In this document: positions 9,291 to 61,200 of the stretch, one piece after another
How the letters are laid out: the number at the start of each line of letters is the position of its first letter
How positions within the stretch are numbered: position 1 is the first letter of the stretch
DNA from: Elusimicrobiota bacterium
GTDB lineage: Bacteria; Elusimicrobiota; Elusimicrobia; FEN-1173
NCBI GenBank assembly: GCA_016722575.1
Contig: JADKIY010000002.1
Location: 136,734 to 200,733, forward strand
Direction: 5' to 3'
DNA: 64,000 nt
Position numbers and translations under genes: made by a program
The notes under the pieces: model-generated
What the model was told of the DNA's origin: nothing
The model's database searches: none
Seen by the model: the letters and a program-made list of their open reading frames with translations, nothing else

Positions 9291-9292
9291 GG

Positions 9293-11391: not shown

Positions 11392-11436
11392 GGTTTATTA
11401 GAATAACACTTTCGGTTCGTGAACGGAGGCTCCGCG

Positions 11437-13793: not shown

Positions 13794-14950
13794 ACCCGCC
13801 CTTTTTCCCAAAAGCCGACGGCGAAGGATTCCCCGGCGGCCCCCCCGCCCACGAAATAGTCCACCCGCCCCGGCCCTTTGATCGCCCCGCCTTCGTCCTG
13901 ATTGACCACAAAACGGGCCGTCTTGTTTTTCGTGTCGGTTTCCATCCACGCCAGGGCGCCCGGGGGATACACGGCGGGATCCGTGGCGATGGACCGCCGG
14001 GGCGTCAAAGGAACGTTCAAGGAACCAAACGCCGCGTCTTTGAGGTCGGACCGGTCGATCTGGAAAAAAACGTAGCGCGGATTGATGTTCAAGAGGGATT
14101 GCCGGGTTCCGGCGTGGGACCGGAGATATTGCTTCATCGCTTCCCGGGAAAACGTTTCGCGGGACAACAGCCCCCGTTCGATCATGGCGCCGCCCACGGA
14201 CCGGTAGGGGAGCCCGTTGTTCCCCGCGTAGCGGATGCGCAGGCGTTCTCCGTTCGGCAACCGCAACCAGCCCGACCCCTGCACCTGCAAAAAGAAAACA
14301 TCCAAGGGATCCGCCGCCCAGGCGATCTCCAAATTCCTACCGGCCAGGCGGCCGCCGGAATCGATCTCCTCCCGGGACCAATAGGGACGAAGATTTCCGC
14401 CGACGCGGCGCCCGATTTGCTTTTCGCCGCTGGGCAACATCGATTCTTCCAGATCGGCCGGCCGGCCGTAGAGGGGCACGGTGAAGGAGGAAGTCCGGGT
14501 CAACGAAGCGTCCAGGTCGTGCTCGTAGTAGGCCGAAAACACGACGTTCCCGTCCGGCGCCGCGCCCGTGGATCGGTATACCCAAAAGGCGTCCCGGACG
14601 CGACGGCCGAAATCCGGCGGATTCGCCGCCAGCCATTCGTCGATCAGCGCCATCCCTTCGGCCATTTCCCGGGCGTTGTAGGCATCGGGACCAAAGTGGA
14701 ACAAACGGTCGGAAGGTTGTTTTTCAAAGTAGCGGCGGCTCGCCCGGACGGCGATTCCCAAGTCCTCCCGATCCAGGTCGTCCAGAAAATCCGGCGCCTC
14801 CTCGGGCGGGAGGCGAAGCAGGGCGGTGGCGGGAACCGGAGCGGTGGACCCCGACCGGGGAACGGCCACGGCGGGCGGGTACCGGTGGATGGGGCCCAGG
14901 CAGCCCGCGGCCAACAGAAAAAAAACCGCCGCCCGCCCGGGATTATTCAC
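13745..14950 (-). CDS. mltA: Membrane-bound lytic murein transglycosylase A (MltA), lipoprotein
   Basis: GTG start 'VNNPGRAAVFFLLAAGC' (lipobox). 'LQVQGSGWLRLPNGERLRIRYAGNNGLPYRSVG' (MltA/3D domain). The upstream 90 codons of the track ORF are unsupported. Confidence 0.8.
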   Translation of the reverse strand: MNNPGRAAVFFLLAAGCLGPIHRYPPAVAVPRSGSTAPVPATALLRLPPEEAPDFLDDLDREDLGIAVRASRRYFEKQPSDRLFHFGPDAYNAREMAEGMALIDEWLAANPPDFGRRVRDAFWVYRSTGAAPDGNVVFSAYYEHDLDASLTRTSSFTVPLYGRPADLEESMLPSGEKQIGRRVGGNLRPYWSREEIDSGGRLAGRNLEIAWAADPLDVFFLQVQGSGWLRLPNGERLRIRYAGNNGLPYRSVGGAMIERGLLSRETFSREAMKQYLRSHAGTRQSLLNINPRYVFFQIDRSDLKDAAFGSLNVPLTPRRSIATDPAVYPPGALAWMETDTKNKTARFVVNQDEGGAIKGPGRVDYFVGGGAAGESFAVGFWEKGRVYFLAKRRGGTERGAR

Positions 14951-15743
14951 GCGGGAAATCGGCCTCAACGGAGGAAATATCCCATCGGACAAAGACGCGC
15001 CGAAGAAGTCCGCGCGCGTCGAAACACAAGCGCCCCTGGATGGGCACCCGCCGGTCCTCTTTGGCAATGCGGAAGTTGTAAACAAACGTTTGAAGGTCGC
15101 CCTCGGGATAACTCGTCGCCGGTTCCCCCAACAAAAACAACGTTTTCGATAAGCTGGGCAATTCCGCCTCGATGTGAGGGGGCAACGAGATCCGTCCGCG
15201 GGCGAGGCGCTTGGTTTCAAAAACCTCCGCGTTGGCGGCTTGTTTCAAGGTTTCCACCAGAACGTTCCGGGGGAACAACAGCATGAAGGTTTCGGGAACG
15301 ATGATTTTGACCAACTTTCCTTCGTGAAAGGCCAAGTCCAGAGACAGGCGGGCCAGGGGCGGGGGACCCGCCGCGGGAACCGTCGATTCGTTCAAAACGA
15401 ACGTTGTGGTTCCGAAAACCACCGGGGCGGGCACGACGGGGGCCGGGGATTCTTCGAATTCGTAGTGGTAAACGTCCTCCCCTTCCGCCGTTTGGTACAA
15501 GGGTTCCGCGCCGATCAGGAATTTGACGTCCTTTGTCTTAAGAACGGGCACGTTAAACCCGATGATCAATTCCGAACGTCCGGAAATATAAAAGTTTTCG
15601 TCGAAATTCCGGAGCTGCTTTTTGATTTCCAAGAGGCGCAGGTAAACGCAACCGGAAAGGAAGGGGACCGCCAAAAGCAAAACCGCGCCCCCGCGCGCAA
15701 AGGCCCGTCGGAAACCCCGCGATCGGGCGGCGCGGCCGGTCAT
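14943..15743 (-). CDS. Hypothetical lipoprotein (classic lipobox FLSGC)
   Basis: ATG overlapping the pheT stop (ATGA at 15740-15743). 'MTGRAARSRGFRRAFARGGAVLLLAVPFLSGC'. 266 aa, no family recognised. Confidence 0.6.
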   Translation of the reverse strand: MTGRAARSRGFRRAFARGGAVLLLAVPFLSGCVYLRLLEIKKQLRNFDENFYISGRSELIIGFNVPVLKTKDVKFLIGAEPLYQTAEGEDVYHYEFEESPAPVVPAPVVFGTTTFVLNESTVPAAGPPPLARLSLDLAFHEGKLVKIIVPETFMLLFPRNVLVETLKQAANAEVFETKRLARGRISLPPHIEAELPSLSKTLFLLGEPATSYPEGDLQTFVYNFRIAKEDRRVPIQGRLCFDARGLLRRVFVRWDISSVEADFPRE

Positions 15744-45380: not shown

Positions 45381-46862
45381 CATGGGCGTTAAAAAATCAA
45401 TTTCACGGACATGGTATATCTTTCTCGCGGCCCTGACGAGCGCCGCCATTGCCCACGCGGGGGTTCCCACCAAGATCACCTACCAAGGACGGGTTTTCAA
45501 ATCCGGCGTCGCCGTGACGGGATCCCACACGCTGAATTTAACCGTCGTTGACGCAAACAATACAGCCGACCGTCGAAGCATCGCGCCCATTAATGTTACC
45601 TTGCCCGCGAACGGGGAATTTAGCGTGACCTTTGATCTCCCCCGGATTCGAATGGGACACCAAAGACCCGCAATTGGAAGTGAAGTCGACGGTGATTTAT
45701 TGACCCCCTGGATGATTTCGGCGTCACCCCCTACAGCCTCTTGGCCTCCAGCGTGGCCGCCAACGGTGTTTCAACGCGCTCTTTGCAGGACGGCTCCGTG
45801 ACGAACGTCAAAGTTTCGACGGTGTCCGCCTCGAAAATCATTCTACCCGGCGGCTCCACCCCCATTTCCACCTGGCAATTGGGCGCCGGCAATTTCATCG
45901 ACGCTTCCAAAGTCGCCCTTCCCGGCAGCACCGCTACCGTCGCCTCCTGGCAATACGGCGCTACCGGCTTCATCGATGTCGCCAAAGTGACTGGCACCAT
46001 CCCCACGACTCCCGTGGCCCACGCCACCTCCCACGGACTGGTCGGCACAGACCCATTGAACGGTCTTTCCCCACTACAAATTTCAGGCTCTGCCGTGGTT
46101 TTGCGTTCCACATCGTCCCAAACCATTCAGCCCCAGGTCGGAAGTGATGTGGTTCCCTTAGTTATTAAACCCAACGCCAGCGTTCCTGCAGGGAGCATAA
46201 ACGCTCTTGAGGTATTTACGAATGCCTCGACCACGTCCGTGACAATTCGCGGGGATGGCTTAATGACGGTAAAGGGAACATTGACAGCCAACGGGCCAGT
46301 GAACGCCACCAACGGGCTGACAATTACCGGGAGCCTAAACGTCAGCACGATTGTGCCGAGCGGGAATTTGAATATTAGCGGGCGAGTTCGCGATAATTAC
46401 GGCTATCTCGTCCCCCCCGGAACGATTGTGGCTTTTGCCGGAACGACGGCGCCATCCGGTTGGCTATTATGCGATGGCTCCACAAAAGACAAGTCAATCC
46501 AGCCCGAGTTAAGTGAGTTAAAATTAGTCCTGGGGTCCACCTATGGGGCAGAAACTGCAAATACATTCGTTCTGCCAAATCTAAAAGGACGCGTTCCGAT
46601 GGGATCCGGAATTGGCGCCAGCGCGACCAATTGGACGATTGGAATAAGCACTGGATCGGAAACATACACGCTTTCGATAGCTCAAATCCCACCGCACCAT
46701 CATGGTGGAGTTGTTATTAGCCATACGACAGATGAATTTTCCGCCAATAATAGCCAAGCAATTAAAACAATAACCTACGGCAATACTCAGGATGAAGGCG
46801 GTGGTCAGCCCCATCCCATCATGCAACCCTCCTTGGTCGTAAATTACATAATTAAGTACTGA
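45381..46862 (+). CDS. Secreted phage tail-fibre-like protein with C-terminal tail-collar domain (PF07484-type), interrupted by an apparent -1 frameshift at a C5 tract (45704-45708); low-GC gene
   Basis: Frame 1 45381..45801 ('MGVKKSISRTWYIFLAALTSAAIAHA' signal peptide...). Frame 0 45696..46862 ('FIDPLDDFGVTPYSLLASSVAANG...GTIVAFAGTTAPSGWLLCDGS...LPNLKGRVPMGSG...' collar domain). One extra C in 'tgaCCCCCtgg' restores a single ~493-aa ORF. Confidence 0.65.
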
Positions 46863-46888: not shown

Positions 46889-47485
46889 ATGAAAAGGTTT
46901 CTTCCACTATTGCTTGCCGCAATCAATCTCATTTCCCCCCTCAAGGCCGCCGATCAATCCGTTCAGTCGACGATAAATCGGATGGCCAACGAGTTAACGG
47001 CCACTTACCGATCCAAATCACCCAACGCGAAGCGAGCGCGCCTGGCCATTCTGGACCTTCAAGCCAGCGAAGATTTAAACAAACAACGTATTGGACCGGC
47101 GCTCACAGACATGATCACCAACGAATTCGTCAACAAATCCGATTTCATCGTCCTTGAGCGTGAACTTTTCGGCAAAATCATGGAAGAACACCAACTCCTA
47201 GCCAACTTCGGCGACGTTTCAAACGCCATCAAGGTAGGAAAGGTTTTGGGGGCTGAGGTGGTCTTGCTTGGGAGTGTCACCCAATTCAAAAGCGACCTTC
47301 GAATCAACCTGCGCTTGGTAAACACCGAAACAACCGAAATACTTAGCACCACATCCGGCATGGTTTCATTAAGCGAATTTTCCAAAGAAAATCCAATTTT
47401 CCCAGGATTTGTCCCTATCACTCAAAAAATCGGCTTATTTGCGGTCTTTGAATATCGTTTCCTGGCAAAACGAACACACCAATAA
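46889..47485 (+). CDS. Periplasmic/lipoprotein-type protein with CsgG/TolB-N-like fold (secreted, 198 aa); low-GC gene
   Basis: Signal peptide 'MKRFLPLLLAAINLISPLKA'. 'RLAILDLQA...LTDMITNEFVNKSDFIVLEREL...ILEEHQL...GKVLGAEVVLLGSVTQF...LRINLRLVNTETTEIL' matches the CsgG/FlgO-like pattern. Confidence 0.6.
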   Translation: MKRFLPLLLAAINLISPLKAADQSVQSTINRMANELTATYRSKSPNAKRARLAILDLQASEDLNKQRIGPALTDMITNEFVNKSDFIVLERELFGKIMEEHQLLANFGDVSNAIKVGKVLGAEVVLLGSVTQFKSDLRINLRLVNTETTEILSTTSGMVSLSEFSKENPIFPGFVPITQKIGLFAVFEYRFLAKRTHQ

Positions 47486-48059
47486 TAACCTCAGAAGGTG
47501 CAAGAATTAATGAAATTAATGTTTCAAATTTCTCTTTAGGTTATACAGGCTTGGGGATTCGTTACTTCCCAACAAGGATTATTTTTATCGAAGGATCAGT
47601 CCTCCAAGTAAGCGGCAACAATAACACCAGCAAATCGTTCAATATTTCGGGAAATTCAGGGATAATTGGCAGTTTTCAGGCAAAGGGCAAAGCTTTACGG
47701 TTCAGATTTGGAACAAAAAGAAAACATACTGAAAATCTTTGTTTCCTCCTCTCTCGGCTTTTCGATTCAAAAACTTGACCTTGCGACTGGCGTGGTTCTG
47801 CGAATGGAATCCCAAACCTATCCAAAACAGTCCCTAATTTCAGCATTGGTGCAACCATGAATATTCAACAAAGACTCGCGATTGGCTTGCAAATTCGATG
47901 CGATCTAAGGAAACTTGATGTCCAAAGAAACAGGCTCAAATCAAAAAGTATATTCCCTCAACCCGTTAGTCATTTCCCCTCAACTCACGTTCTATTTCTA
48001 GTCTGAAACAATAATTGCCCGACAAATCCCTCACCCCCATCTTTCTATTCGCCGCGTTT

Positions 48060-51000
48060 ATGTTGGGCACGGCGCGGTTTGCGCCGCGGTGGGCTTTGCG
48101 GCGGCCGGCCCTGGTGGGGGTTCTTACGGCGGCGCTCGTTGTTTGGGGCATCGTTTCCATGCGGGGGCTCCCGGTGGAGCTCATGCCCAACGCGGCGTCG
48201 GACACCGTCACCGTCACGGTGGGCGTCCGGGGCGGCATGTCCCCCACGGACGTGGAAGCCCTCATCGTCCGCCCCCTCGAAGACGGGTTGGGGGACCTCC
48301 CCCGCCTTAAAACCCTGATCTCCAGCGCCAAAAAAGACCGGGGCGTGGTCACCCTCGATTTCCACCCCGGGGTCGACATGAAGCGCGTCACCGCCGAGGT
48401 GAACGAACGCGTGGACCGCGCCCTGGCCCGCCTGCCCGCCGAAATCGAAAAACCCGTTATCGCCCACTTTGAGGAAAACGACGCCCCCGTCTACATCGCC
48501 GCGGTCCTAAGCGACCGCCTCTCGCCCGAGAGCGTCCGCAAAATCATCGACGACAACATCAAAGACCACCTCCTTCGGACGCCCGGCGTGGCCAACGTGG
48601 AAATCGGCGGTGGGCGGGAAGGCAAGATCCTGGTGGAGCTCAACCGGGATCGCCTGGCCGCCTACGGCCTTTCCCCCCACCAAATCACCAGCCTCCTGGG
48701 CCGCCGGAACGTCGCCCTTCAAGTCGGAAGCGTCACCGGGGACGCCCGCGTGACCCCCGTGCGGCTCGTGGGCACCCTTAAAAACCTGGAGGATTTCCGA
48801 AAGGTCGTGGTGGCCCGGGACCCGTCGGGAGGCACCGTCCGGCTGGAAAACGTCGCCACCGTGACCGACAGCTACCTGGAACCGGAGAGCCTCTCCCGGT
48901 TGAACGGCCAGGCCGCCGTGTCGCTCTACGTTCAAAAAGAATCCTCCGCCAACACCCTGCGGGTCGTGCGTGACCTGGAAAAAGCCTGGGACAAAGCCTG
49001 GCGCAACCTGCCGGCCGGAACGCGGAAAGACCTTCGACACGTGGTCGTCTCCAACCAGGCCCTGGGGATATTGGCGGCGGTTGTTTCGGTTCGTGTGTCC
49101 CTGGCCTGCGGGATTCTGTTGATCCTCCTTTCCCTCTGCCTTGTTGAAAGCGAGCGCCTTTCCACCAAGCGCATGGCGGGCGTCGTCATGGGAATGCTAT
49201 TGGCGCTCATGTGCGTTACCGCCCTGCTTAAAATCAGCGACGCCCGCATGGAGCCCCTCTACTGGATACTTCTGGGGCTATTTCTCCTATTGGCTTTTTT
49301 CGACCCGGACATCCGGCCTGGGCTCATCGTGGCGGGCAGCATGCCCCTTTCGGCGCTTTTCTGCTTTCTGCTCTTCCAGGCCTGCGGGTTGACCCTGAAC
49401 GTCATGAGTCTCTTCGGCCTGGCCCTGGGGCTCGGCATGTTGGTGGACAACGCCACCGTGGTCTATGAACACATCAACGAACTCGGCCTCCCCCCGCCCG
49501 GCCCGGCCGCCCGGGAAGCGGCGCTCAAAGCCACGGAGGAAATGGTCATCCCCTTGATCGGCGGCACCGTCACCAACGCCATCGTTTTCGTTCCCTTTCT
49601 TTTTCTGTCCCGGGAAATCCAGTTGATGTACACCGACGTGGCGGCGGCCGTGGGGGCCTCCCTCTTCGCCTCCCTGGGAATTTCCTTAACGGCGGTTCCC
49701 CTACTGGCCTCGGGACTCATGCTTAAAGGCGCGCCGAAATGGCCGACGTTCCCGGGGCCATTCGAATCCCGGGCCAAAAAATGGGGCGAGGGCTTAAACA
49801 GGTTGGGGACGGTTTTGTGGGAGCGCGGTGCGGCCTTCTCAAAGCGCGCGATGGAGAGAGCCCGGGCCTTTTACGCCGCCCGACTTAAGCCCCGTTTCAA
49901 TTCACTGGCCGGGCACCATTCCCTGGCGGGTTTGCCGCCCTGGGCAGCGCTGGTTTTGTTTGTGGTGTTGTTTGCTGGGTTGTGGGCGCTCGGGGGCAAG
50001 ACGCCGGCCAAGATTTTCTTTCTGCTCACGGCCCTGGGGCTCACGGCGGCGGGCTTCGCGCTTTTCCGGGGTTTTGAGCGCCACTGGCCGCGCCTTTTTC
50101 ACCGTCGGGCGGAAACCCTGGCCGCGGCGCTCTTGCTGGCGGCGGCCGCCACGGCGGTGATTTTTAAGGCCACCGAACGGGACTTTCAAACCTCCGGGGA
50201 ATTGGACGAATTCGTCGTCTTTCTGGAACTCTCCTCGGGGGTCCGGCTGGAGGTGTCGAACGCGGTGGCGGCCGAGGTGGAAAAGATTTTGGACACGGAC
50301 CCGGAGGTGGCCCCCACCATCAAAACGGCCGTCAGCCGGGTGGAAGGTTGGTCCTCCAAAATTTACGTCACCCTCGTTCCCCGGGCCCAACGGCGATTGA
50401 GCGCCGAGCAGGTTCAGGACCTCCTTCGGGTGAAGCTCAAAGGCGTGGGGAGCGACAAGGACCCCAACGCCTTCGTCCACTTCTCCAGCCCCCGAACGGG
50501 GCAGGAAATCACCGTGGAAGTCCTGGGCCCCGACTACGGCGTCTTGGAACAGTTGGCCCAGCAAATTTGCGGCTCACTGGAAAAAATCCCCGGGCTTTCC
50601 GACGTTAAAATGCGCTACCGCCCCGGCCGGCCCGAGGTCTTGGCCGTGGTGGACCCCGACCGGGCGGCCCGGGCCGGCCTTTCCGCCGAGGCCGTGGCCG
50701 AAACCACCCACGCCCTGGTGCGGGGCCTTCGGGCCACCACCTTCCGCACGGGCGGCCGCCAGACGGAAACCATCGTCCGCCTCCGCCGGGAAGATTCCGA
50801 AAACCTGAACGCACTGGCGGACCTGCCCCTGGGCGGCCCCTCGGGCCGCACCCTGCGGCTGACGGAGGTGGCGGACCTCACCATGTCCAAGATGCCCAAC
50901 GAGATTTTCCGGGAAAACAAAGCCCGGCTCATTCAGATCACCGCCAACCGCACGCGCCTCTCCCTGGGCCGGGCCGCCGAGGAAATCCAGGCCGCCCTGG

Positions 51001-51617
51001 ACGCCATGAATTTCCCCCTGGACTACCACGCCGCCCTGGACCGGGAAGTGACGGACATGGCGCGGTCCATCAACCAACTGACAGCGGGCATCTTGGTCAT
51101 GATTTTTCTTGTGTACGTGGTGCTGGTGGTTCTCTTTGAATCCCTGGTGGAACCCTTCATCATCCTAAGCGCCGTCCCTCTCTGCCTGATCGGCGTGGCG
51201 GGCGGGTTGGTCTTTTTCGGCCTTCCTTTAAGCACCGGGGTGCTGGTGGGGGTCATCATGTTGGCCGGGGTGGTGGTCAATAACGCCATTATGCTTTTAG
51301 ACCATCTCAACAACTACACCGACCGGCACGAGCCCCTGGCCGACCGGCTAAAAAAGTCCGTTTTGGCCCGCATGCGGCCTATTTTCCTGACTGCGGGAAG
51401 CGCCGTTTTGGGTTTTCTACCCATGATGCTGGACACCTCCGAAAGCGGCGTTCTGTGGCGGCCATTGGCTGTGACGCTCGTTTTCGGGTTGATTTTCTCT
51501 ACTGTTTTGACACTTTACGTCACCCCCGCCTTGACCCACTTCCTATTAAGGGACATCCCCCAATGGCTGGCCAGACGACGGTTTCTAGCCAAAATAGCCC
51601 CCAACCCCGCCGCCTAG
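48060..51617 (+). CDS. RND-family efflux transporter permease (AcrB/HAE-type), 1,185 aa from ATG (track TTG start at 48015)
   Basis: 12-TM RND architecture with two large periplasmic loops, 'GLALGLGMLVDNATVV', 'AILVMIFLVYVVLVVLFES'. No adjacent membrane-fusion-protein or OMF gene. Confidence 0.85.
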   Translation: MLGTARFAPRWALRRPALVGVLTAALVVWGIVSMRGLPVELMPNAASDTVTVTVGVRGGMSPTDVEALIVRPLEDGLGDLPRLKTLISSAKKDRGVVTLDFHPGVDMKRVTAEVNERVDRALARLPAEIEKPVIAHFEENDAPVYIAAVLSDRLSPESVRKIIDDNIKDHLLRTPGVANVEIGGGREGKILVELNRDRLAAYGLSPHQITSLLGRRNVALQVGSVTGDARVTPVRLVGTLKNLEDFRKVVVARDPSGGTVRLENVATVTDSYLEPESLSRLNGQAAVSLYVQKESSANTLRVVRDLEKAWDKAWRNLPAGTRKDLRHVVVSNQALGILAAVVSVRVSLACGILLILLSLCLVESERLSTKRMAGVVMGMLLALMCVTALLKISDARMEPLYWILLGLFLLLAFFDPDIRPGLIVAGSMPLSALFCFLLFQACGLTLNVMSLFGLALGLGMLVDNATVVYEHINELGLPPPGPAAREAALKATEEMVIPLIGGTVTNAIVFVPFLFLSREIQLMYTDVAAAVGASLFASLGISLTAVPLLASGLMLKGAPKWPTFPGPFESRAKKWGEGLNRLGTVLWERGAAFSKRAMERARAFYAARLKPRFNSLAGHHSLAGLPPWAALVLFVVLFAGLWALGGKTPAKIFFLLTALGLTAAGFALFRGFERHWPRLFHRRAETLAAALLLAAAATAVIFKATERDFQTSGELDEFVVFLELSSGVRLEVSNAVAAEVEKILDTDPEVAPTIKTAVSRVEGWSSKIYVTLVPRAQRRLSAEQVQDLLRVKLKGVGSDKDPNAFVHFSSPRTGQEITVEVLGPDYGVLEQLAQQICGSLEKIPGLSDVKMRYRPGRPEVLAVVDPDRAARAGLSAEAVAETTHALVRGLRATTFRTGGRQTETIVRLRREDSENLNALADLPLGGPSGRTLRLTEVADLTMSKMPNEIFRENKARLIQITANRTRLSLGRAAEEIQAALDAMNFPLDYHAALDREVTDMARSINQLTAGILVMIFLVYVVLVVLFESLVEPFIILSAVPLCLIGVAGGLVFFGLPLSTGVLVGVIMLAGVVVNNAIMLLDHLNNYTDRHEPLADRLKKSVLARMRPIFLTAGSAVLGFLPMMLDTSESGVLWRPLAVTLVFGLIFSTVLTLYVTPALTHFLLRDIPQWLARRRFLAKIAPNPAA

Positions 51618-51688
51618 CCGTTTGTTACAACTGATTTACTTTTCGTTCATCACGTTTTTATCCTCTCCGTGATATACTCTGCGCTACC

Positions 51689-52285
51689 GTGAAACTCCGT
51701 CTCAAACTACTCTCCATCAGTATTTTAATTTCAGCCCCCCTCCGGGGCGAAATTCACGACCCGACCGGCTCCGGTCTGCGGGTGACGGACGTGGTGGGGT
51801 TCTCCGGTCAAATCATCTCAAGCACCACGAGCCTTCGATCCGCCTCCAGCATCGGCGTTCTTGGCTCCACCATTACTCTTCACGCCACCTCGGGACTCGA
51901 ACTGCGCACCGGACTTTGGGGCGGCGGGCCCTCGCTCAAATCGACTGCCCTCGAACAAACCATCATCTTTGGCGCGCCTCGAACCGCCCGCCTCGTGATC
52001 CCCCCGGGAGCCATCGCGCGGGACTACGCTGTCTTCACCGGCACCAGCCCCGCCACGGAGCCCTTGAACGCTTCCCCCGCTATTCTCCAAACCGCCACGC
52101 GCAATCTGGCGCGGGCCAGTTCCTACAGCAACCCGGCCAACGGCCGTTTGTGGGAAATCTACGTTCAAGACGATAACGGTATTAAGCAATCCGGCGCTCT
52201 CCTTCGCTCCGCAACGCTCACACTTCCCTTTGACGACGTCGACCAGGACGGGCACGTGGACGGCAGCGCGCCCCCGTTCGCGTGA
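51689..52285 (+). CDS. Secreted hypothetical protein (signal peptide); probably the N-terminal part of one ancestral gene with 52282..52734
   Basis: GTG start preceded by an extended -10 'gTGaTATACT'. 'MKLRLKLLSISILISAPLRGE'. Stop overlaps the next start (GTGA). Confidence 0.55.
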   Translation: MKLRLKLLSISILISAPLRGEIHDPTGSGLRVTDVVGFSGQIISSTTSLRSASSIGVLGSTITLHATSGLELRTGLWGGGPSLKSTALEQTIIFGAPRTARLVIPPGAIARDYAVFTGTSPATEPLNASPAILQTATRNLARASSYSNPANGRLWEIYVQDDNGIKQSGALLRSATLTLPFDDVDQDGHVDGSAPPFA

Positions 52286-52734
52286 AAACTCTTTCCATCT
52301 GGTGGCTAGACGAAGTCCATTCGCTGTGGGTCAAAGTCCCGAACCCGACGATCAACACTTCCAGCCAAACCGTCACGGCGCTCATTCCCCACTTTTCGGT
52401 CTACGCCGTCATGGGAGCGCCCTCCTTCGACCCCTCGGAATCCTTCGCCTTCCCCGTGCCCTGGCGGCCGGCGGGGCCCAACGCCGGAAGCGCGGCGGGC
52501 CAAACGGGCACCTTGGCGGGCGGCATCACCTTCACCAATTTGCCGGACGCCTGCACCATCCGCCTTTACACCCTATCGGGCGGGTTGATCCGGGAGATCA
52601 ACCACAGCGTGGGCCTCCAGGAAACCTGGGACGGCCGAAGCGCCGACGGCGAGAATGTCGCCAGCGGCACCTATGTCTGGGTCGTGTCCGCCAACGGCTC
52701 CAAGAAAACCGGCAAACTGGCGGTCATCCGATGA
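52282..52734 (+). CDS. Protein ending in a T9SS-type / FlgD-Ig-like C-terminal beta-sandwich sorting domain; lacks its own signal peptide
   Basis: C-terminus 'ITFTNLPDACTIRLYTLSGGLIREINHSVGLQETWDGRSADGENVASGTYVWVVSANGSKKTGKLAVIR' (Por_Secre_tail/FlgD_ig pattern). One extra C in the C5 tract 52271-52275 would fuse it in frame to 51689..52285. Confidence 0.6.
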   Translation: MKTLSIWWLDEVHSLWVKVPNPTINTSSQTVTALIPHFSVYAVMGAPSFDPSESFAFPVPWRPAGPNAGSAAGQTGTLAGGITFTNLPDACTIRLYTLSGGLIREINHSVGLQETWDGRSADGENVASGTYVWVVSANGSKKTGKLAVIR

Positions 52735-53891
52735 TCGGCCTTCGCCGATTTTCCGGCAAAATTCTTTTTGGAGGCGCGATCGCGTTTCTTGGCTCGACGG
52801 GTTGGGCTTCCGATGGAAGCACCGGGGCGGAATTTCTAAAGATCGGCGCCGGAGCGCGGCCCGCGGCCCTGGGCGACACCCAGGCGGCGCTGTCCGAAGG
52901 CGCCCTGGCGGCCCTCTGGAACCCCGCGGCCCTGGGCGGCCTTTCCTCGGCCGAAATCAGCCTCACCCACAACCGGTGGTTTGAAGGCATCCAGGACCAG
53001 CGCTTTGTGGCCGCCGTCCCGACCAAGTCGGTCGGCACCCTGGCCCTGGCCTACGAACGCCTGGCCATCAACGACTTTCTCTCCTTCGACGCCCAGGGCA
53101 CCAACACCGGGGCGGTCAACTCCGGCGACAGCGTGATTTCCCTGGCCTGGGGGCGAAACCTCGCCCAGGGCGCCACCGGCGGCAGCGGCCTCTACGCCGG
53201 ATTGGCCGCCAAAAGCATCAACGAAAAAATCGCGGGCGTCAGCGCCTCGGGCTTCGCCTTGGATTTTGGATTTCTGTTCCGCCCCTGGGGCCTCACCGCC
53301 CAACGCCTCCCCTGGGTTCGCCGCTCCAGCCTGGGCTTCTACGCGAAGAACCTGGGCCAGGGCCTCAAATTCGACGAGGAAAACGCCCCCCTTCCGACGG
53401 AATACGACCTGGGCGCGGGCTACAGCCAACCCCTGGGCGGCGACATTCTTAACCTCGGCCTCGATTACCACCTGGTGACCGGCGAAACCGCCGCCGTGAG
53501 CGCCGGCATGGAATATTGGATGAAAAACCTTCTGGCCCTCCGCCTGGGCTACCGGACTTCCGACGTGAACGGCCTGGGTTTCCGCGCCGGGGCGGGTTTC
53601 AAGGTCGGCAAAATCCAGGCCGACTACGCCTGGGCCGCCACCGGCGAAGATTTCGGGCCCTCCCACCGGATCACTCTCACCTACCGTTTTGGTCCCGCCG
53701 CCGTGGCCCCCGGCCTGGCCGCCGACCTGGTCGACGACTACATCGCCCGGGGCAAGCGCCACATGGAACTGGGTCTCTACGACCGCGCGATTTTGGAATT
53801 CAACGAAGCGCTCTCCATCCACCCCGGCGACGAATCGGTCCGGGCCCTGCTGATGGAATGCGGCGAGAAAATGGAGAAAGCGGCCCCGTGA
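52731..53891 (+). CDS. Outer-membrane beta-barrel protein of the PorV/PorQ (UPF0164, FadL-superfamily) type
   Basis: ATG overlapping the previous stop (ATGA). Signal peptide, N-terminal 'GAEFLKIGAGARPAALGDTQAALSEGALAALWNPAAL' signature, alternating beta-strand pattern, C-terminal aromatic 'LTYRF'. Confidence 0.65.
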   Translation: MIGLRRFSGKILFGGAIAFLGSTGWASDGSTGAEFLKIGAGARPAALGDTQAALSEGALAALWNPAALGGLSSAEISLTHNRWFEGIQDQRFVAAVPTKSVGTLALAYERLAINDFLSFDAQGTNTGAVNSGDSVISLAWGRNLAQGATGGSGLYAGLAAKSINEKIAGVSASGFALDFGFLFRPWGLTAQRLPWVRRSSLGFYAKNLGQGLKFDEENAPLPTEYDLGAGYSQPLGGDILNLGLDYHLVTGETAAVSAGMEYWMKNLLALRLGYRTSDVNGLGFRAGAGFKVGKIQADYAWAATGEDFGPSHRITLTYRFGPAAVAPGLAADLVDDYIARGKRHMELGLYDRAILEFNEALSIHPGDESVRALLMECGEKMEKAAP

Positions 53892-55129
53892 GCCGTTCCG
53901 CCGTTTTCGGCGCGGCGGCCCTCTTCCTTTTACCGTCGATCGCCCAAACCGCTCCCCCCGTTCCCGAGGCGGCCATCGCCCCGGCCAACGATCTCAAACA
54001 AATCCTGAAAACGGCCCGGCAATTGGAATTGAAGGGCGATTACCGCGCCGCCTGCCGGACCTACCTCTCCGCCCTCCCCGATCACGCCGCCGACCTTCGA
54101 ATCCAAACCGGTCTCAAGCGCGCCGCCGGCGCCCTGGCCCGGGACATGGACGCCCAACGGCAAAAAGCCACGGACCGCTACGTGCGCGACGCCCAAATGA
54201 GCGCCGACCGGTCCTACGCCTACCAGAAAAGCCAGCGGGACCGGGTCGTCAAAGCGAAACGGTTGATTTCGAAGGGCCAATACCTGGCCGCCTCGGACGC
54301 GCTGAACACGATATTGGAGGAATCTCCCGGCATGGACGAAGCCCGGGACCAGTTGGACCGCGCCACGCGGCTCATGGCGGGTCGGCTCAAGCGCGGCAAG
54401 TTTCCGACGGTGCAACACCAGGCGGTCTGGGAAGGACTTGTCTTTTACAATCGCGCGGATTTTGAATCCGCCGCCCGCTCCCTGCGCCTGGCCCTCAGCG
54501 CCGGTTCGATTCCGACCGATCTCGCGGACGCCCGGGTGGAAAATTACGCCGTGCTGGCCGAGAAGAAACAGGCCCTGGCCCTCTGGCGCCAGGAGCGGCA
54601 AATCCTCCTCCTCAAAGCCGAGAACGCCAAGAAAGACGGCGACCTGGCCGCGGCCAAGGCCTCCTACGAACGAATTTTGAATAAAGACCCCGGCGACGCC
54701 GACGCCCGAGCCGGCCTGGAAAACCTGGGCTCCGTCGTGAAAGCCGTCGAAAAAGCCGTGGTCAAAGAAGTGCGCCGCAAGGAAGTCCCCGACCTCCTGG
54801 CCAAGGGCACCATCGACATGGTCCACGAACGTTACACCGACGCCCTGGAATCTTTTCACGCCGTTTTGCAGTTGGAACCCGACAACGCCGAAGCCAAGGA
54901 ACAGATCAACGAAGTGCAGCGGCTCATGAAAGGGCGCAAGCTCTACGTCCCCCCCGTGAACGTCAAGAGCGCCGCCGACGATAAATACCGGGAAGGCCTC
55001 AAACTCTACGGCAACGAACAATATTCCGAAGCCCAGGCCGCCTTTGAAGAAGCCCTCCAAATCGACCCCAAGCACGACGACGCCCGCCAAGCTCTCAAAC
55101 GCTTAAAAGACCAAGCCAAGCAACCGTAA
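53888..55129 (+). CDS. Secreted tetratricopeptide-repeat protein
   Basis: GTG overlapping the PorV-like stop (GTGA). Signal peptide 'VSRSAVFGAAALFLLPSIAQTAPP'. Multiple TPR-like helical pairs, with a C-terminal 'YSEAQAAFEEALQIDPKHDDARQAL'. Confidence 0.7.
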   Translation: MSRSAVFGAAALFLLPSIAQTAPPVPEAAIAPANDLKQILKTARQLELKGDYRAACRTYLSALPDHAADLRIQTGLKRAAGALARDMDAQRQKATDRYVRDAQMSADRSYAYQKSQRDRVVKAKRLISKGQYLAASDALNTILEESPGMDEARDQLDRATRLMAGRLKRGKFPTVQHQAVWEGLVFYNRADFESAARSLRLALSAGSIPTDLADARVENYAVLAEKKQALALWRQERQILLLKAENAKKDGDLAAAKASYERILNKDPGDADARAGLENLGSVVKAVEKAVVKEVRRKEVPDLLAKGTIDMVHERYTDALESFHAVLQLEPDNAEAKEQINEVQRLMKGRKLYVPPVNVKSAADDKYREGLKLYGNEQYSEAQAAFEEALQIDPKHDDARQALKRLKDQAKQP

Positions 55130-55193
55130 ATCGGCTCCCGTTTTTCCCCGCCGTTTGGATGTAAAATCATTGGAAACTATCTGTTTTTACTGA

Positions 55194-55222
55194 TTGACAT
55201 CTTTTATATTCCGTAATATAGT
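55194..55222 (+). promoter_or_regulatory. Near-consensus sigma70 promoter TTGACA-N17-TATAGT for the giant YD-repeat gene
   Basis: 'TTGACAtcttttatattccgtaaTATAGT' in an AT-rich intergenic region. ~57-nt leader with 'aggaaacgaggg' RBS region before the ATG at 55288. Confidence 0.55.
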
Positions 55223-55287
55223 AGTAGCAACTCACCCAGGGCTGCATACTTCTTTTAAATACTAATTCGACGCGAGGAAACGAGGGC

Positions 55288-58200
55288 ATGGCGACCGCCA
55301 AACCTCTGTTGATTCGACCCCTATTCCTTCTGGCCCGGCGCCTACGCCGGGTCGGTTTTGTTTGTGGGCGGTTGGCCTTCCCCGCCCTCCGTTTATCGAC
55401 GGCGGGGGCCTTCCTTTTCGTCACCCTGGCGACCCCCTTCTCCCAGGCCCGGGCCCAGAGCCGGGCGTCCTTCTCCTCCCGCCAATACGACGAGTTTTCC
55501 ACTTCCCGGGAAGACGGCGACTACTTCAGCCCCGACCGCCTTCGCCAACGCCTCCACACCTTGGACACCATGGTGGAGGGCCTCAACAACCGTTTCGCCC
55601 GGCTCCAGGGCCGTTCCTTGGACCGCGGCGCGTCGGAGAACCTGACGCCCCAGGTGTTCCAAGCCGCGCTGGAACGATTCCAGGCGGCCGCCCAATTCTC
55701 CTCGGAAATTGAAATGAAGCGGGCCCAGTTCTCCCAAACCCTGGCCTCCGCCGGGGGCTTCCAGTTCCGTTCCTACCCCGACGGCCGCCGAATGTGGTTT
55801 AAAAACGGCCGAGTCCACCGCATCGAAAACGAAAAAATCACCGACGGCCAGGGCCGGGTCGGCCACCAGGACGTGGTGGACATGGCCTACGACAAACGAG
55901 GGAATCTCCTTTCCTCCAAAACCATCCTCCGGGACGCCGACGGGCATCTGACCACCAAAAACTGGGTCGGGACCTACGCCGACGGGCCCAACGGGAAATC
56001 CGTTCTGGCCTCCTTCGCCGAAACCACCTGGGACCCCCTGGGGAACGAAACCAAAATCGAACGGACCGGCCTGACCTACGGCGACGGCGGGAAAAATGCG
56101 ATCTCCTATCAGGAAACGACCACCGACAAATACGGGCAGACCGCCCGGCGCACCGTCACGGGCTCCTCCTACGATGGGGACGGAAACCTTCTTTCCTTTC
56201 ACGAAGAATCCGAGGAAAACGGCGTCGCCCTGTCCAAGGATTGGTCCGGCGCCGTCTACCAGAAATACCAACGGGACGGCAAAGACGCCTGGCGCCTGAC
56301 CTCCTACAGCGAAACCACGACCGACGCCCAGGGGCGCCAAAGCCGCCGGGAGTGGGGCGGCGCGACCTACGACGAAAACAATTCCTTAAAGACCTACACC
56401 CAGAAAGACACCGACTCCTCCGGCGAAAGCCGGGTTCTGACCTGGGGCGGGGCCCGCTACGACGCCCGGGGCAACGTGACGGAATTTACGGAAACCCGGA
56501 CGGGTCCGGAGGGAGAGTCGCGGCGGACCTGGCGGGGCGGCCAATACGACGCCCACAGCCGCCTGACCGATTTTGAGGAGTTGAACGTCGACGCCCAGGG
56601 CGTCTCCACCAGCCGCCGCTGGTCGGGGGCGGAATACAACGCCAAAGGCGACCTTCTCCGATATCGCGAAACCGACGTGGACGGCCACGGTTTGGAATCG
56701 GTTCGAACCTGGACGGCCGGTTCCTACAACGACGGACGCCTCACCGCTTACTCCGAAACGACCGTGGACGACCGGGGCCACGCGGCCCTTCGTCAATGGA
56801 ACGGGCTTTACGGCGCCGACCGTCGGTTGGGCTCCTTCAGCGAAGAGTCCACCGATGCCCTGGGGAACGTCACCCGACGGGGCCAGGAGGGATTGACCTA
56901 CGATTCCCTGGGCCGCGCCCAGGCCTACGACGAATGGTCCGAGGACGCCTTTGGCCAGCGAACGGCGTCCCGTTGGACCGCCGCGGGCTACGACCTCAAG
57001 GATCGCCTCACCGGTTACCAATTAATCGAAACCCTTCCCTCCGGCCGAACCATGACGACCGCCCGAAGCGCCATGACTTACGACTCCGCCGGGCGGTTGG
57101 CGCAATACGACGACGCCCTGACGGCCCAGGGAGGAAATTCCCCCGACGCCACGGGGCGGCAGACGGTCCGGGTCCTGTCCTTTGATGCCTTTGGCCAGGC
57201 CACGCTGACCCAAACCACCTCCACCAACGCCCTGGGCGAAGCGACCGAGCGGACCCACCAAGCGGAATACGACGGCCGGGGCCGGTTGGCCTCCACCGCC
57301 GACACCCTCCGGTCCGCCGACGGCGCGCCGGACGTCGCCCGTTGGTCCGTCGACGCCTTTGACGAATACGACCGCGCCACGGCCACCCGGGAAATCACGG
57401 GCGCGGGCGAAAGCGAAAAAACAAAAGTTTGGTCGGGCCGGTTCGATTCCAAAGGACTCGCGACGGAATCCACCGAAACGACCACCGACGCCCGGGGCCT
57501 TTCCATCACCACCCGCCTCTCCGACGCCGTCCACAACGCCCAGGGCCGGTTGACGGATTCCCTGCAAGTCACCCAACGCTCGGACATGCCCGGCGTGACC
57601 ATCGAAACCCGAACGACCGAGCGAACCTACGACCGGGCCGGCGCCGTGACCGGCGGGCGGGAAGTCACCCGAACCACCGGGGAATGGAACGGCCAACCCC
57701 TGGATGTCACCACCGTCCGCCGGACGGAGGAAGCCGTTCTGGCCGACGGGTTCGTCACGGGCTATCGGCAAACCGTCCTCACGACCGGCGTCTCGGACGG
57801 GAGATCCCTTCACACCCAGGATGAAACTCGCGTCGCTTTGGGCGCGAAGGGAGATCGCACCGAGACCACCCATCGGTTGGCCTTTGGGAAGGACGAAATC
57901 CTTGAAACCGACGCCTATTCGACCCTGCGGCGAACCAACCTGCTGGCGGACCTGGCCGGCCGCGCCCTTTCCTACACTGAGGAACGGTCCGAAGATTTCT
58001 CCCCCTTGGCCAAAACAACGACCCGGCGGGAAAACCGCTATTCGGCCGCGGGAGTCCTGACAGGGTTCACCGAGGACTCCGTGGACGGCCTGGGGCTCCG
58101 CTCCCACAGCGAAACCATCGGCCTGGTGGAGAACGCCGCCGGCCAACAGATCGCCAGTCGGGAACGCATCACGCACCCCGGCCAAACGGTGGTGGTGGAC

Positions 58201-61200
58201 GAGATCGCCAAATCCGAAATAGTCTATTCCCCCCTGGGCCAATTGGCTTCCTACCGGGAACAAACCCTTTCGACCGGGCCCGGGCTTTCCAACGCCGCCG
58301 ACGCCCGTAAAACCCTGAGCTACGACGGGGCCGGCCGAGTCGCCGTCTCGAGCGAAACGGGCACGCGAAACGGCGCGGCCTATACCACCAACACCTTCAA
58401 CGCCGCCTTCGATTTGAAAGGCCGCCCAGTTCATTCCGTGGAAGAATCCACGGGCCCCGGCGGTCCCTCCGACATCGAACGGTCCGCCGTCGCCTTCGAC
58501 GATTTCGGCCGGCGGGTTTCCTACCACGAAGAAGGCGTTGCCGGCGGGTCCATGGTCCATCAAACCGTCGCCACGGAATACGACGCCCTGGGCCGGGAGG
58601 CGGCCACCGAAACCACCGGTTTCCGGGAATCGGGCGCCTTCCGCGAGCGGAGCGAAACCACGGGGATCAACGATTTGGGCCAATCGACCGGCCGGCGGGT
58701 CACGGGGCATTCGGCCGCCGAAGGCGATTACGCTTATTCCCAGACCGGACAGGTTTACGGCCTGGCCGGTGATTTAATTTCGTTTGATAAAGAACGCACC
58801 GATGTCGACGGCATCACCCGTTCCCATTGGGCGTCCAAAGGCGCCGACGCCCGGGGCCGCTCCCTGGGTTATACCGAGACCGGGTCGGTCGCCAAAGACG
58901 GCCAGCCCCTTTACGAGTTCACGACCGAGCAAACGGCCGGGGCCTACACCCTTCAAAACCAAGCGGCCTCCTACGACGCCGTCACCACCAAACGATTCTC
59001 CAACGGCCCGGTGGAAACCGCCGCCACCCATTGGACCGACGGGGCCTACGACGCCCAGGGCCGCTTGACGGGCTTTAAAGAAACCCAAACGACGACGTTG
59101 ACCGACAACGGCCAAACGAAAACGTCCACGACCTCCCGCCTTCGGGAAAGCGCCACCTACTACGACGACAACGGGCCCGGCCATCTCAAAGGCCAGTTGG
59201 CCTCCACGGTCGAAGTCCTGCTGGACGATTTGTCGCCGGAAAAAGCCCGGCGGGTCCGAACCGCCGGCATGACCTACGACGCCGAGGGCCGTTTGATCGG
59301 CGCCGAATCCACGACCGGCGAGGTGAACCGGCTGAAGGACGCGCTCCGGCGCCTGGGCGATCTGCTGGGCGGCGGCGCGAAGGCGGGCGGAAACATTTTG
59401 ACCGGCCTGCGCCAACTTTTGGAGAACACCGCCGACCTAACCTCCGACGTTGTGGCCTGGGCAAAGGACAACCTGGTTTCCCCCACCCAGGTCTTCCTGG
59501 AGGGCCTGGGCGCCTGGCTGGCCGACGTGGCGGGTGGCAAAGGCGCCGCCAATCCCGCGCTGGACCGCGAAGCCGTGTCGGAACTGGTTTATCGAATTCA
59601 CGAAAAGGCCGGCGGCGCCAACCTCGAGGAGATCCCCGCGGGATTTCAGTCCGCCGCCGCGGCGTTGGGGACCTTCGACCAAACGCTCACGGTGACCCGC
59701 GCCGTGGACAAAGTGTTTGACCCCCAGGGCCGGGCCACCGCCTGGCGCGAGATCGCCCTTTCCGCCTCGGCCCCGGACCGCCCGGCCGTCACCGACGTTC
59801 GCGTCACCTACAAGGACAATTCCCGACTCCTCTCGACCTACGCCGCCCGTACCGTGGAAGGCGAAAAAGTGACCCAGCTTTTCCGGGACCATTACGCCTA
59901 CGACGCCTTAAACCGCGGTCTCTACCGCGAAGCGACCTTCGAGGGCGAGGACCTCGCTGTTCTCTCCGTTGAAAAAGGGAATGTTTCCACCACCGGCGCC
60001 CAGTGGGGCTCGCTAAAAGGCGAGGCGCGCTCCCTGCTCCTCTCGGACATATTGGAGGGCAGCACGGAAATCATCGGCAAGGTGGATTTCAAACGAATCG
60101 ACGACGCGACCTTTGACGCGGCCGGGAACATGCTGGACATTTTCGGAACCCGAACGACTCGGGGAATTGTTTTGTCGGATTTCGCCCAAGGGCAAGCCAT
60201 CCCAAGCGATTACGGCGCCATGGTCGAATCCGCGCTGAAGGCGGCCCAGGCCGAATACGACCAATCCCTCGCCGCCCTCGCCGAAATCGCCGACGCGGCG
60301 GAAGCCCAAGCCTCCCTTCAAAAAAACGCGGTCGCCCGGGACCAAGGGGCGGTTCAGGACGCCGACGACTTGTTGAAAGCCGCCATCGCCGCCAAGGAAG
60401 ACGCCCTGGCGCGGCTGGCGCAGGCCGGCAAACGAAAATCCGAACTGGAGGCGGCCGTGGCGCAGTTCGTTTCCGACCGCAAGGAAATCGACCGTCAATC
60501 AATCACCCCGCGAACTCCCATTGCGCCCATTGTTTCCCCCGAATACGTGAAAGACGGCAAAACCTATGTGGACGTCACGACCACCCAGTGGTACCAAGTT
60601 CTCAAATTCGACGACGCCGGCAACTTGGTTAAGACCTTTGTCCAACGCCTGACGACGGATCGCAATCTGGTCGGGGGCCATGGCGGCGGGCCCGTCGACC
60701 GCACCGTGACCGAATCCGAAGCCGATCCGGGGAGTCTTTTCGGATTTTCGTCTGGGAATCGAGGAACCGAGATATTGTTAAAAGCCGACGACGGCCACGG
60801 CGCCTGGGCCGACAAACTTCCCCAAGGGGACGCCCCCAGCTTCCAAATCGACGGCAAGCGCCTTTTCTCTTTGAGTCCATCCGCCGTCGCCGCCCTCACC
60901 CGGTTGGCCGACCTTCACCGATCCCTCGCCGCCACGGTCGCCGAAACCGACCAATCCACCACGAATTTCAATGCGGCCGTTATCGCCGTTAACACCGCCG
61001 CCGCCGACCTGCAAACGGCCAACGCGGCCTTGGCCGTTTCCCAGTCGGCCCTGGACGCCGCCCAAAGCGCCGCGCAATCGGCCCAATCGGAACTTCAAAA
61101 CATAAAAGTCCAAGGATTGTCCGGCCTCGAAAACAAAAAAATCGCCATCGCGGGCGAATTTGCCGCCAACGCCGCCGCCCTGGCTAAAACGCTTTCGGGT

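Follow-up and report, generated by a model that had tools for sequence, protein, structure and literature searches.

The stretch analysed here, hereafter the window, comprises 64,000 nucleotides (nt) of an Elusimicrobiota genome (assembly GCA_016722575.1, contig JADKIY010000002.1, positions 136,734 to 200,733), and its subject is a gene module at window positions 51689–55129. This module encodes a secreted protein ending in a C-terminal domain (CTD) of the kind that type IX secretion systems (T9SS) use, a PorV/PorQ-family outer-membrane barrel and a secreted tetratricopeptide repeat (TPR) protein. NCBI taxonomy ranks Elusimicrobiota as a phylum immediately below Pseudomonadati, and the closest homologues all come from Elusimicrobia metagenome-assembled genomes (MAGs). 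The GC content of the window ranges from 58 to 67 %, with a single dip to 47 % at 46–48 kb.

Organization of the locus

The module consists of three genes, or four when a conserved upstream gene for an RND permease is counted. Homologous loci and proteins from other genomes are cited below by L and P numbers. The open reading frames (ORFs) and features of the block, with lengths in amino acids (aa), are as follows.

48015–51617, plus strand: orphan RND permease of 1200 aa, first gene of the conserved block (Pfam ACR_tran, 572.8 bits)
51689–52285, plus strand: ORF A (198 aa), N-terminal fragment of the CTD protein, with the signal peptide, the linker and most of a beta-sandwich domain; in relatives, it aligns with the first two thirds of one uninterrupted ORF
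52271–52276, plus strand: frameshift site, CCCCCG in the window versus CCCCCGG in an intact relative (DNA alignment with L089)
52282–52734, plus strand: ORF B (150 aa), C-terminal fragment of the same gene, in which coding really begins at about 52276 and not at the GTG
52450–52731, plus strand: CTD of 94 aa, a T9SS/FlgD-Ig-type beta-sandwich with a conserved Lys at −9, recognised by profiles and Foldseek
52731–53891, plus strand: ORF C (386 aa from ATG), PorV/PorQ-family outer-membrane barrel of 14 strands, with a signal peptide and an N-terminal hatch carrying an NPA motif
53718–53888, plus strand: C-terminal three-helix TPR-like tail of the barrel (residues ~330–386), presumed periplasmic
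53888–55129, plus strand: ORF D (413 aa from GTG), secreted all-TPR protein with a signal peptide and no lipobox Cys

The original prediction, made from the letters alone, described four ORFs chained by 4-nt start/stop overlaps. Its coordinates are correct, as are the junctions (GTGA at 52282–52285, ATGA at 52731–52734 and GTGA at 53888–53891), and the count of four gives way to three, one of which is frameshifted. A family-specific hidden Markov model (HMM) of the CTD revealed neither a second CTD-bearing ORF nor a second PorV-like gene in the window.

ORFs A and B form a single frameshifted gene

In relatives, a single protein of 299–359 aa aligns with ORF A and then with ORF B. When the repaired fusion was used as the query, it recovered P0042, a protein of 348 aa that is 96 % identical over 100 % of the query and reads DGSAPPVRVKSLSIWWLDE across the A/B junction. 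At this point the DNA encoding P0042 (L089) has GCGCCCCCGGTG, as against GCGCCCCC-GTT in the window, and the addition of one base to the window yields DGSAPPVRVKTLSIWW, in agreement with DGSAPPVRVKSLSIWW of P0042. The two ORFs together make up a single gene of 348 aa that has lost 1 nt at about 52275/52276, and this loss also created the first GTGA overlap. The deletion may stem either from the assembly or from a genuine mutation.

Programmed −1 frameshifting at GCG CCC CCG, where a −1 slip would restore APPVRVK, was considered and rejected as the default explanation, because the site contains no canonical slippery heptamer and the 96 % identical relative is simply one base longer. A third reason is our inference, drawn from the 1.1-Mb length of the contig, that the assembly derives from long reads and is hence prone to indels.

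The CTD protein and its C-terminal domain

The AlphaFold2 model of P0042 (predicted local distance difference test, pLDDT, 84) comprises a signal peptide, a linker, a beta-sandwich region at residues ~80–250 and a C-terminal beta-sandwich at 253–348; pLDDT is below 50 in the linker (16–76) and above 90 from about residue 80. The signal peptide of ORF A was judged by eye. The N-terminal 250 aa of the CTD protein matched no family in Pfam or NCBIfam.

The last 94 aa match the PorZ C-terminus in NCBIfam (E 1.8e-8), and the profile of the CTD family likewise reaches the C-terminus of PorZ (9.8e-6). In Foldseek, the best matches of the whole model are PorZ (5m11, 2.4e-7) and PorU (6za2, 8.9e-6); the CTD of NucA in a substrate-bound translocon (8glk_D, TM 0.71) and FlgD are also among the matches. 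Searched on its own against 1.84 billion cluster representatives, the 94-aa domain gave 4332 matches at E ≤ 1e-3. It ends no more than 3 aa from the host C-terminus in 129 of the 135 top matches, whose hosts span 90–2044 aa, and 113 of these 129 C-terminal copies have a Lys at −9. Type A CTDs possess a near-invariant Lys close to the C-terminus that contacts PorV (PMC10994853). The 94-aa domain is a T9SS-type CTD by fold and behaviour, and it acts like a sorting or anchoring tag, as its C-terminal position on many hosts of such different lengths and its Lys at −9 indicate.

The prediction of a C-terminal T9SS/FlgD-Ig-type sorting domain is accordingly borne out in fold and behaviour, while the window copy falls narrowly short of the TIGR04183 and PF13860 cut-offs; its score for CHU_C in Pfam is also sub-threshold (23.6 bits, cut-off 27). 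Other members of the family do qualify as sorting domains, including that of L013 (23.1 bits for TIGR04183) and several homologues with precomputed PF13860 matches, and one Elusimicrobia member, P0099, is named ‘T9SS type A sorting domain-containing protein’ by NCBI.

The PorV/PorQ-like barrel

The product of ORF C matches NF033709 with 138.5 bits (cut-off 90, E 3.6e-40) across model positions 1–326 of 326. Among the equivalog models, PorQ (NF033711) scores best with 76.6 bits (cut-off 220), followed by PorV (NF033710) with 59.6 bits (cut-off 250), both falling below their cut-offs, as do the PorP/SprF models TIGR03519 (20.8 bits, cut-off 90.55) and PF11751 (14.2 bits, cut-off 22.3). The AlphaFold2 model (pLDDT 90) has a hatch at the N-terminus, a barrel of 14 strands and three helices at the C-terminus. 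Compared with the PDB by Foldseek, its top two matches are PorV structures of Flavobacterium johnsoniae (8gl6_F, 4.8e-16; 6h3i_F, 3.6e-13; TM 0.63–0.70), with FadL at 4.7e-8, and the barrel family profile reaches PorV at 1.3e-43 and TodX/TbuX at ~1e-5. The identification as PorV-like is confirmed by the NF033709 match and by the lead of PorV over FadL in both comparisons, and the concern that the protein might score only as a generic FadL transporter did not materialise. ‘PorV/PorQ family protein’ is also the automated annotation already given to such components in relatives.

The three helices of the C-terminal tail span residues 330–346, 350–363 and 368–383 in the model. Residues 337–375 match Pfam TPR_2/TPR_14 below the cut-off (E ~4e-4), and the barrel family profile also matches designed TPR proteins through this tail.

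Several Elusimicrobiales loci contain a longer form of the barrel. In L021 (1543–3465, minus strand), a PorV-like barrel is fused to ~300 aa of C-terminal TPR repeats, and similar ORFs of 611–617 aa occur in L029, L044 and L050. In L021, L044 and L050, such a barrel adjoins a second PorV-like gene, which in L021 and L044 has its own CTD-protein gene of ~790 aa.

The TPR protein

ORF D is recognised by the Pfam models TPR_19 (46.5 bits), TPR_2 (41.8 bits) and TPR_1 (35.2 bits) and by nothing more specific. It matches the TPR part of PorE weakly (E 1.1e-4), a similarity that is not diagnostic, and neither a beta-propeller nor an OmpA_C peptidoglycan-binding domain was recognised in it by Pfam or NCBIfam. 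It is 26–93 % identical to the gene directly after the barrel in L001, L002–L004, L005, L006/L007 and L008–L011. The GTGA overlap between the barrel and TPR genes is common only to the window and its 96 % relative L005; no overlap exists in L001, L002 or L006.

Conservation of the block in Elusimicrobia

Whether the gene order is kept in related MAGs had been posed as a check, and it is: the order RND permease, CTD protein, barrel, TPR protein is found in the window, L001, L002–L004, L006/L007, L010 and L011, with identities to the window of 42–70 %, 41–60 %, 40–66 % and 30–56 %, respectively. L005 and L009, both on short contigs, contain the last three genes. Outside the block, gene content varies and includes two-component genes, WecG, Collar proteins and toxin-antitoxin genes. 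Translational coupling of the CTD protein and the barrel is argued for by the ATGA overlap of stop and start, which is conserved in seven loci (window, L089, L005, L002, L006, L010 and L011). A distant paralogous trio occurs in L008, in the order barrel, Big_5 + CTD protein and TPR protein, without an RND gene.

The RND permease scores well under the cut-offs of the NCBIfam RND permease subfamilies. Its identities given above refer to the equivalently placed, same-strand gene of each locus that keeps the full order. In the window, L002, L006 and L010, the genes immediately flanking it encode neither a membrane fusion protein (MFP) nor an outer-membrane efflux protein (OEP), so the block does not have the composition of a tripartite system; in L001 and L006, separate complete OEP-MFP-RND sets lie a few kb downstream. 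The permease is co-inherited with the module and probably co-transcribed with it.

At one locus the block may extend further: in L001 (GCA_016721625.1), a gene at 12280–13953 encodes a 557-aa protein without a family match and shares 4 nt with the TPR gene at the stop of the latter. It looks like a fifth block member, and it is not found at that position in the other relatives.

Adjacency of CTD and barrel genes across phyla

GTDB species genomes were scanned with the barrel alignment, which yielded 80 loci from many phyla, and two HMMs were built, the first on the final 85 aa of the CTD family, the second on the barrel family. At roughly 65 of the 80 loci, the PorV-family gene has a CTD-ending gene as its immediate same-strand neighbour. 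This neighbour is PorU in Zixibacteria, Ignavibacteria, Rhodothermales and KSB1; the one in L045 scores 767 bits for NF033707 (PorU), and for the rest of the class the assignment comes from phmmer comparison with the L045 sequence. The corresponding gene of Elusimicrobia, WOR-3, Marinimicrobia, Eisenbacteria, Gemmatimonadota, Latescibacterota and Poribacteria encodes instead a variable non-PorU protein of 175–1860 aa, whose sole recognised part is the PorZ/PorU-like CTD. Four barrels adjoining non-PorU CTD proteins were scanned (window, L008, L018 and L022), and each scores higher for PorQ than for PorV; of two scanned barrels adjoining PorU, both give the higher score for PorV. In other phyla, some PorV-family barrels lack a CTD neighbour.

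The window pair belongs to this broad class of a variable CTD protein plus a PorQ-like barrel. The view that the arrangement is without precedent therefore fails, since PorU–PorV adjacency occurs in many genomes of the Fibrobacterota-Chlorobiota-Bacteroidota (FCB) superphylum, and cassettes of type-B-CTD, PorP-like and PorE-like proteins have been described (PMC9143113). Two things are new: the conserved block of four genes, and its presence in a phylum outside FCB.

A separate feature of the PorU-adjacent class concerns protein length. PorV-family proteins of 730–1065 aa adjoin PorU in L045 (3964–6609), L053 (932–4096) and ~35 similar loci from Zixibacteria and Ignavibacteria; they carry an insertion of ~500–700 aa, without a family match, between the hatch motif and the remaining barrel.

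Relation to known CTD–barrel systems

Two described arrangements resemble the module. In the PorU–PorV and PorZ–PorQ pairs of Porphyromonas gingivalis and F. johnsoniae, a CTD-retaining protein is likewise combined with a 14-strand PorV/PorQ-family barrel, and the adjacent same-strand genes for PorU and PorV-family proteins in many FCB genomes have the same geometry as in the window. The window passenger differs in being a beta-sandwich of ~170 aa, neither a C25 sortase nor a double beta-propeller, and the barrel differs in failing both equivalog cut-offs and in bearing a TPR tail. Moreover, the window pair is preceded by an RND permease and followed by a TPR protein, its host is a member of Elusimicrobiota, and no T9SS core gene was seen nearby.

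In the second arrangement, known from Bacteroidota, PorE (TPR), PorP (barrel) and PG1035 (CTD) form a complex and porE-like genes adjoin porP-like genes; F. johnsoniae SprB binds SprF, the PorP-like partner cognate to it, and six of the genes for the ten PorP-like proteins of this species, which are thought to be cargo-specific, adjoin porE-like genes (PMC9143113). The window trio shares the three-part logic of these type-B-CTD/PorP(SprF)/PorE cassettes (PMC9143113), in which a FadL-fold barrel binds its own CTD protein and also a periplasmic TPR protein, with genes that are often adjacent and one barrel per cargo. It departs from them in all three components: the barrel is of the PorV/PorQ family, as its low TIGR03519 score reflects, the CTD is type-A/PorZ-like with only the sub-threshold match to CHU_C, and the TPR protein has no recognised beta-propeller or OmpA_C domain.

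FadL/TodX channels share the 14-strand barrel, the N-terminal hatch and the NPA motif with the product of ORF C, although its similarity to them is far weaker than to PorV. To our knowledge, no FadL gene is paired with a CTD-protein gene. A barrel with a helical or TPR-like C-terminal tail also recalls the FadL orthologues of Treponema pallidum; the UPF0164 proteins of Treponema (PF03687) are FadL-like outer-membrane proteins, some of which have helical C-terminal extensions. PF03687 appears among the precomputed Pfam matches of many barrel homologues, and the window barrel itself has no PF03687 match at E ≤ 0.1. We know of no CTD partner in treponemes.

Proposed function of the module

We lean towards reading the CTD protein and the barrel as a cognate anchor pair tethered to a TPR partner, comparable to PorZ–PorQ, PorU–PorV or the type-B-CTD/PorP/PorE cassettes. 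The 348-aa CTD protein would be exported by Sec, after which its 94-aa CTD would dock, without a covalent bond, on loops that the cognate 14-strand barrel, the product of the translationally coupled next gene, exposes outside the cell. Docking of this kind, analogous to that of PorZ on PorQ, PorU on PorV and type-B-CTD proteins on PorP/SprF, would display the N-terminal beta-sandwich at the cell surface. The putatively periplasmic TPR tail of the barrel may in turn bind the secreted TPR protein, as PorP binds PorE, and so fix or organise the complex; the barrel–TPR fusion of L021 fits such a contact. The RND permease could contribute a supply of lipid or ligand, or energy input.

The original prediction had offered a dedicated surface attachment system or a secretion shuttle as alternatives. 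Attachment is the best reading of the module, and a shuttle is less likely than a fixed anchor because PorQ outscores PorV for this barrel and every CTD paralogue seen had a barrel of its own. The same preference follows from the CTDs themselves, which best match the retained CTDs of PorZ and PorU.

Several observations weigh against an anchor pair. The window CTD marginally misses both sorting-domain models, with 20.5 bits against a cut-off of 23 for TIGR04183 and 24.3 bits against 27 for PF13860 (FlgD_ig). The CTD gene is frameshifted in this assembly, and a genuine deletion could mean that the module is inactive here. Known anchoring models offer no role for the conserved RND gene, and the resemblance of the TPR protein to the TPR repeats fused to the L021 barrel (BLASTP E 0.003) was rejected as too weak for homology. 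Furthermore, none of the ~35 window ORFs scanned encodes a T9SS core component (SprA, PorK/L/M/N or PorU); they are housekeeping or unrelated genes, among them ilvB, rarA, murQ, nagZ, namZ, mltA, pheST, der, hflX, miaA, cls and mtgA and genes for a GH94 protein, a rhomboid protease and an acyltransferase. In relatives, the flanking sequence annotated with Pfam, up to 10 kb on each side of the module, is also devoid of T9SS core genes. T9SS has been described as confined to the FCB superphylum (PMC12421860) or to Bacteroidota, and the host phylum Elusimicrobiota stands outside FCB. With no translocon gene seen in these sequences and a host outside this superphylum, the anchor reading does not account for the passage of the CTD protein across the outer membrane.

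The prominence of the RND permease invites a different explanation, in which the block serves trans-envelope transport of a hydrophobic or lipid substrate, with the permease as the driver, the TPR protein as a periplasmic adaptor, the FadL-fold barrel as a conduit for lateral release and the CTD protein as a lid or accessory. The permease is the best-conserved member of the block, always directly upstream and on the same strand, and in the window, L002, L006 and L010 neither of its immediate neighbours encodes an adaptor or a TolC-type protein; set against this are the L008 trio, which has no RND gene, and the CTD–barrel adjacency seen across phyla without one. The barrel does have a FadL fold with an NPA hatch motif, and other phyla have PorV-family barrels with no CTD gene beside them, but PorV surpasses FadL/TodX by 8 orders of magnitude in fold E-value and by ~38 in profile E-value. 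We also know of no precedent for a TPR protein that replaces a membrane-fusion adaptor, which counts against this explanation. On balance, transport is an unlikely primary role of the block.

It is also conceivable, and rather improbable in our assessment, that the block is an accessory of a full T9SS encoded elsewhere in the genome. In T9SS, the CTD reaches PorV via the SprA/Sov translocon; the window barrel would then be a PorV-type shuttle that receives the CTD protein, and perhaps others, from SprA/Sov, with the CTD cleaved by the sortase PorU. This would suit a barrel whose nearest match in fold and profile is F. johnsoniae PorV, were it not for its low score for the PorV equivalog and the higher one for PorQ. 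It would also suit a CTD of T9SS type with a conserved Lys that tags thousands of different proteins, one of which (P0099) bears the NCBI name cited above, yet every CTD paralogue examined adjoins its own barrel. The lack of SprA, PorK/L/M/N and PorU in the ORFs and flanks described above speaks against a full system, as does the description of T9SS as restricted to FCB bacteria (PMC12421860). A literature search found nothing relevant that ties Elusimicrobia to T9SS or PorV.

The adjacent giant YD protein

Downstream of the module lies a giant gene, to which the original prediction had linked the CTD protein and the barrel.

55194–55222, plus strand: sigma-70-type promoter-like site TTGACA-17-TATAGT, 11/12 matches, ahead of the giant gene
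55288–64000, plus strand: giant YD-motif protein, open from 55228 with ATG at 55288, running past the window end (3369 aa in full)

The giant protein is 100 % identical to P0120, a 3369-aa protein named ‘RHS repeat protein’ by NCBI and encoded on a 1.10-Mb contig of an Elusimicrobia MAG. It contains 25 Y[DN]xxG motifs, compared with 0.24 in shuffled sequences, and matched no family in Pfam (E ≤ 0.01) or NCBIfam (E ≤ 0.001), including the RHS/YD repeat models. The promoter-like site is the sole one of its kind in 51400–55500, where shuffles average 0.6, and it falls within the 158-nt spacer between the end of the module and the start of the giant gene.

If the module served this protein, the same sorting domain might be expected at its C-terminus, a point that the original prediction had named for checking. 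The full 3369 aa gave no CTD HMM match, even with filters off, and the protein ends in unrelated sequence. No homologue of it occurs in the 88 other loci, and none lies within 10 kb of the module in L001–L008; in one other Elusimicrobiota MAG, a homologue (P0126) is encoded on the module's 18-kb contig, upstream of the module. Its Elusimicrobia homologues (3767–4904 aa, in the set P0120–P0125, whose P0120 is the identical protein of 3369 aa) have unrelated C-terminal regions, as in polymorphic toxins. The proposed link is therefore not upheld on three grounds, namely the missing C-terminal CTD, the separate promoter-like site and the lack of conserved synteny, and the giant protein was rejected as cargo. 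That the CTD protein and the barrel act as its dedicated exporter or anchor, which the 158-nt distance on the same strand and the shared contig of P0126 might suggest, is very improbable and already largely refuted by these same grounds together with the divergent C-termini. We judge the giant YD protein to be an independent neighbour outside the cassette, possibly a polymorphic-toxin-like one.

Two further features of its C-terminal region were noted. A hydrophobic stretch lies ~75–100 residues before the C-terminus of the giant protein, and the C-terminal regions of some homologues contain short tandem peptide repeats, for example SEARVRD.

Other features of the window

Just upstream of the RND gene, at 45741–46862 (plus strand) and within a low-GC stretch of 45.1–48.0 kb (47 % GC), lies the gene for a 373-aa protein whose phage tail Collar domain scores 63 bits for PF07484. 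Collar-domain proteins are found near the module elsewhere as well, directly upstream of the RND gene in L001 (3495–4838) and downstream in L002/L003. Between the Collar and RND genes of the window, a 198-aa secreted CsgG/FlgO/LpoB-type protein (PF03783, 53.9 bits) is encoded at 46889–47485 (plus strand), and it is followed on its 3' side by ~500 nt of AT-rich sequence without a convincing ORF.

Farther away, positions 7779–15220 contain a cell-wall recycling cluster composed of a sodium/solute symporter, a NamZ exo-muramidase, a MurQ etherase, a NagZ-like hexosaminidase and an MltA-like transglycosylase. At 2105–3394 (minus strand), a 430-aa ankyrin-repeat protein is encoded, whose top NCBIfam matches are the ankyrin parts of Legionella Dot/Icm effectors; such a protein is unusual for a free-living bacterium.

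Implications

Research on T9SS treats PorV-type recognition of the CTD as one step of a large machine limited to Bacteroidota and their relatives. Here, a CTD protein and a PorV/PorQ-like barrel form a translationally coupled pair in a phylum not known for T9SS, accompanied by a TPR protein and an orphan RND permease. Whether or not these genomes have a T9SS, the adjacency seen across phyla provides a usable annotation heuristic, namely that a gene ending in this CTD adjoins a PorV-family gene.

A bolder proposal, which we put forward tentatively and consider doubtful, is that the block is a self-contained, translocon-independent surface-display module of Elusimicrobiota, in which the PorQ/PorV-like barrel would capture and hold its cognate CTD protein while the TPR protein and the proton-driven RND permease replace the periplasmic scaffold and motor of T9SS. 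If true, the block would represent the attachment step of T9SS in a minimal or ancestral form, or else a new way of placing a protein on the outer membrane. Should the genomes prove to be without SprA and PorKLMN, CTD–barrel docking could work alone, and a stand-alone pair would offer a small, tractable system for studying CTD–barrel binding and the origin of the attachment complex. If the genomes do have a T9SS, the module would widen the known range of this system and add a PorQ-like class of cognate anchors.

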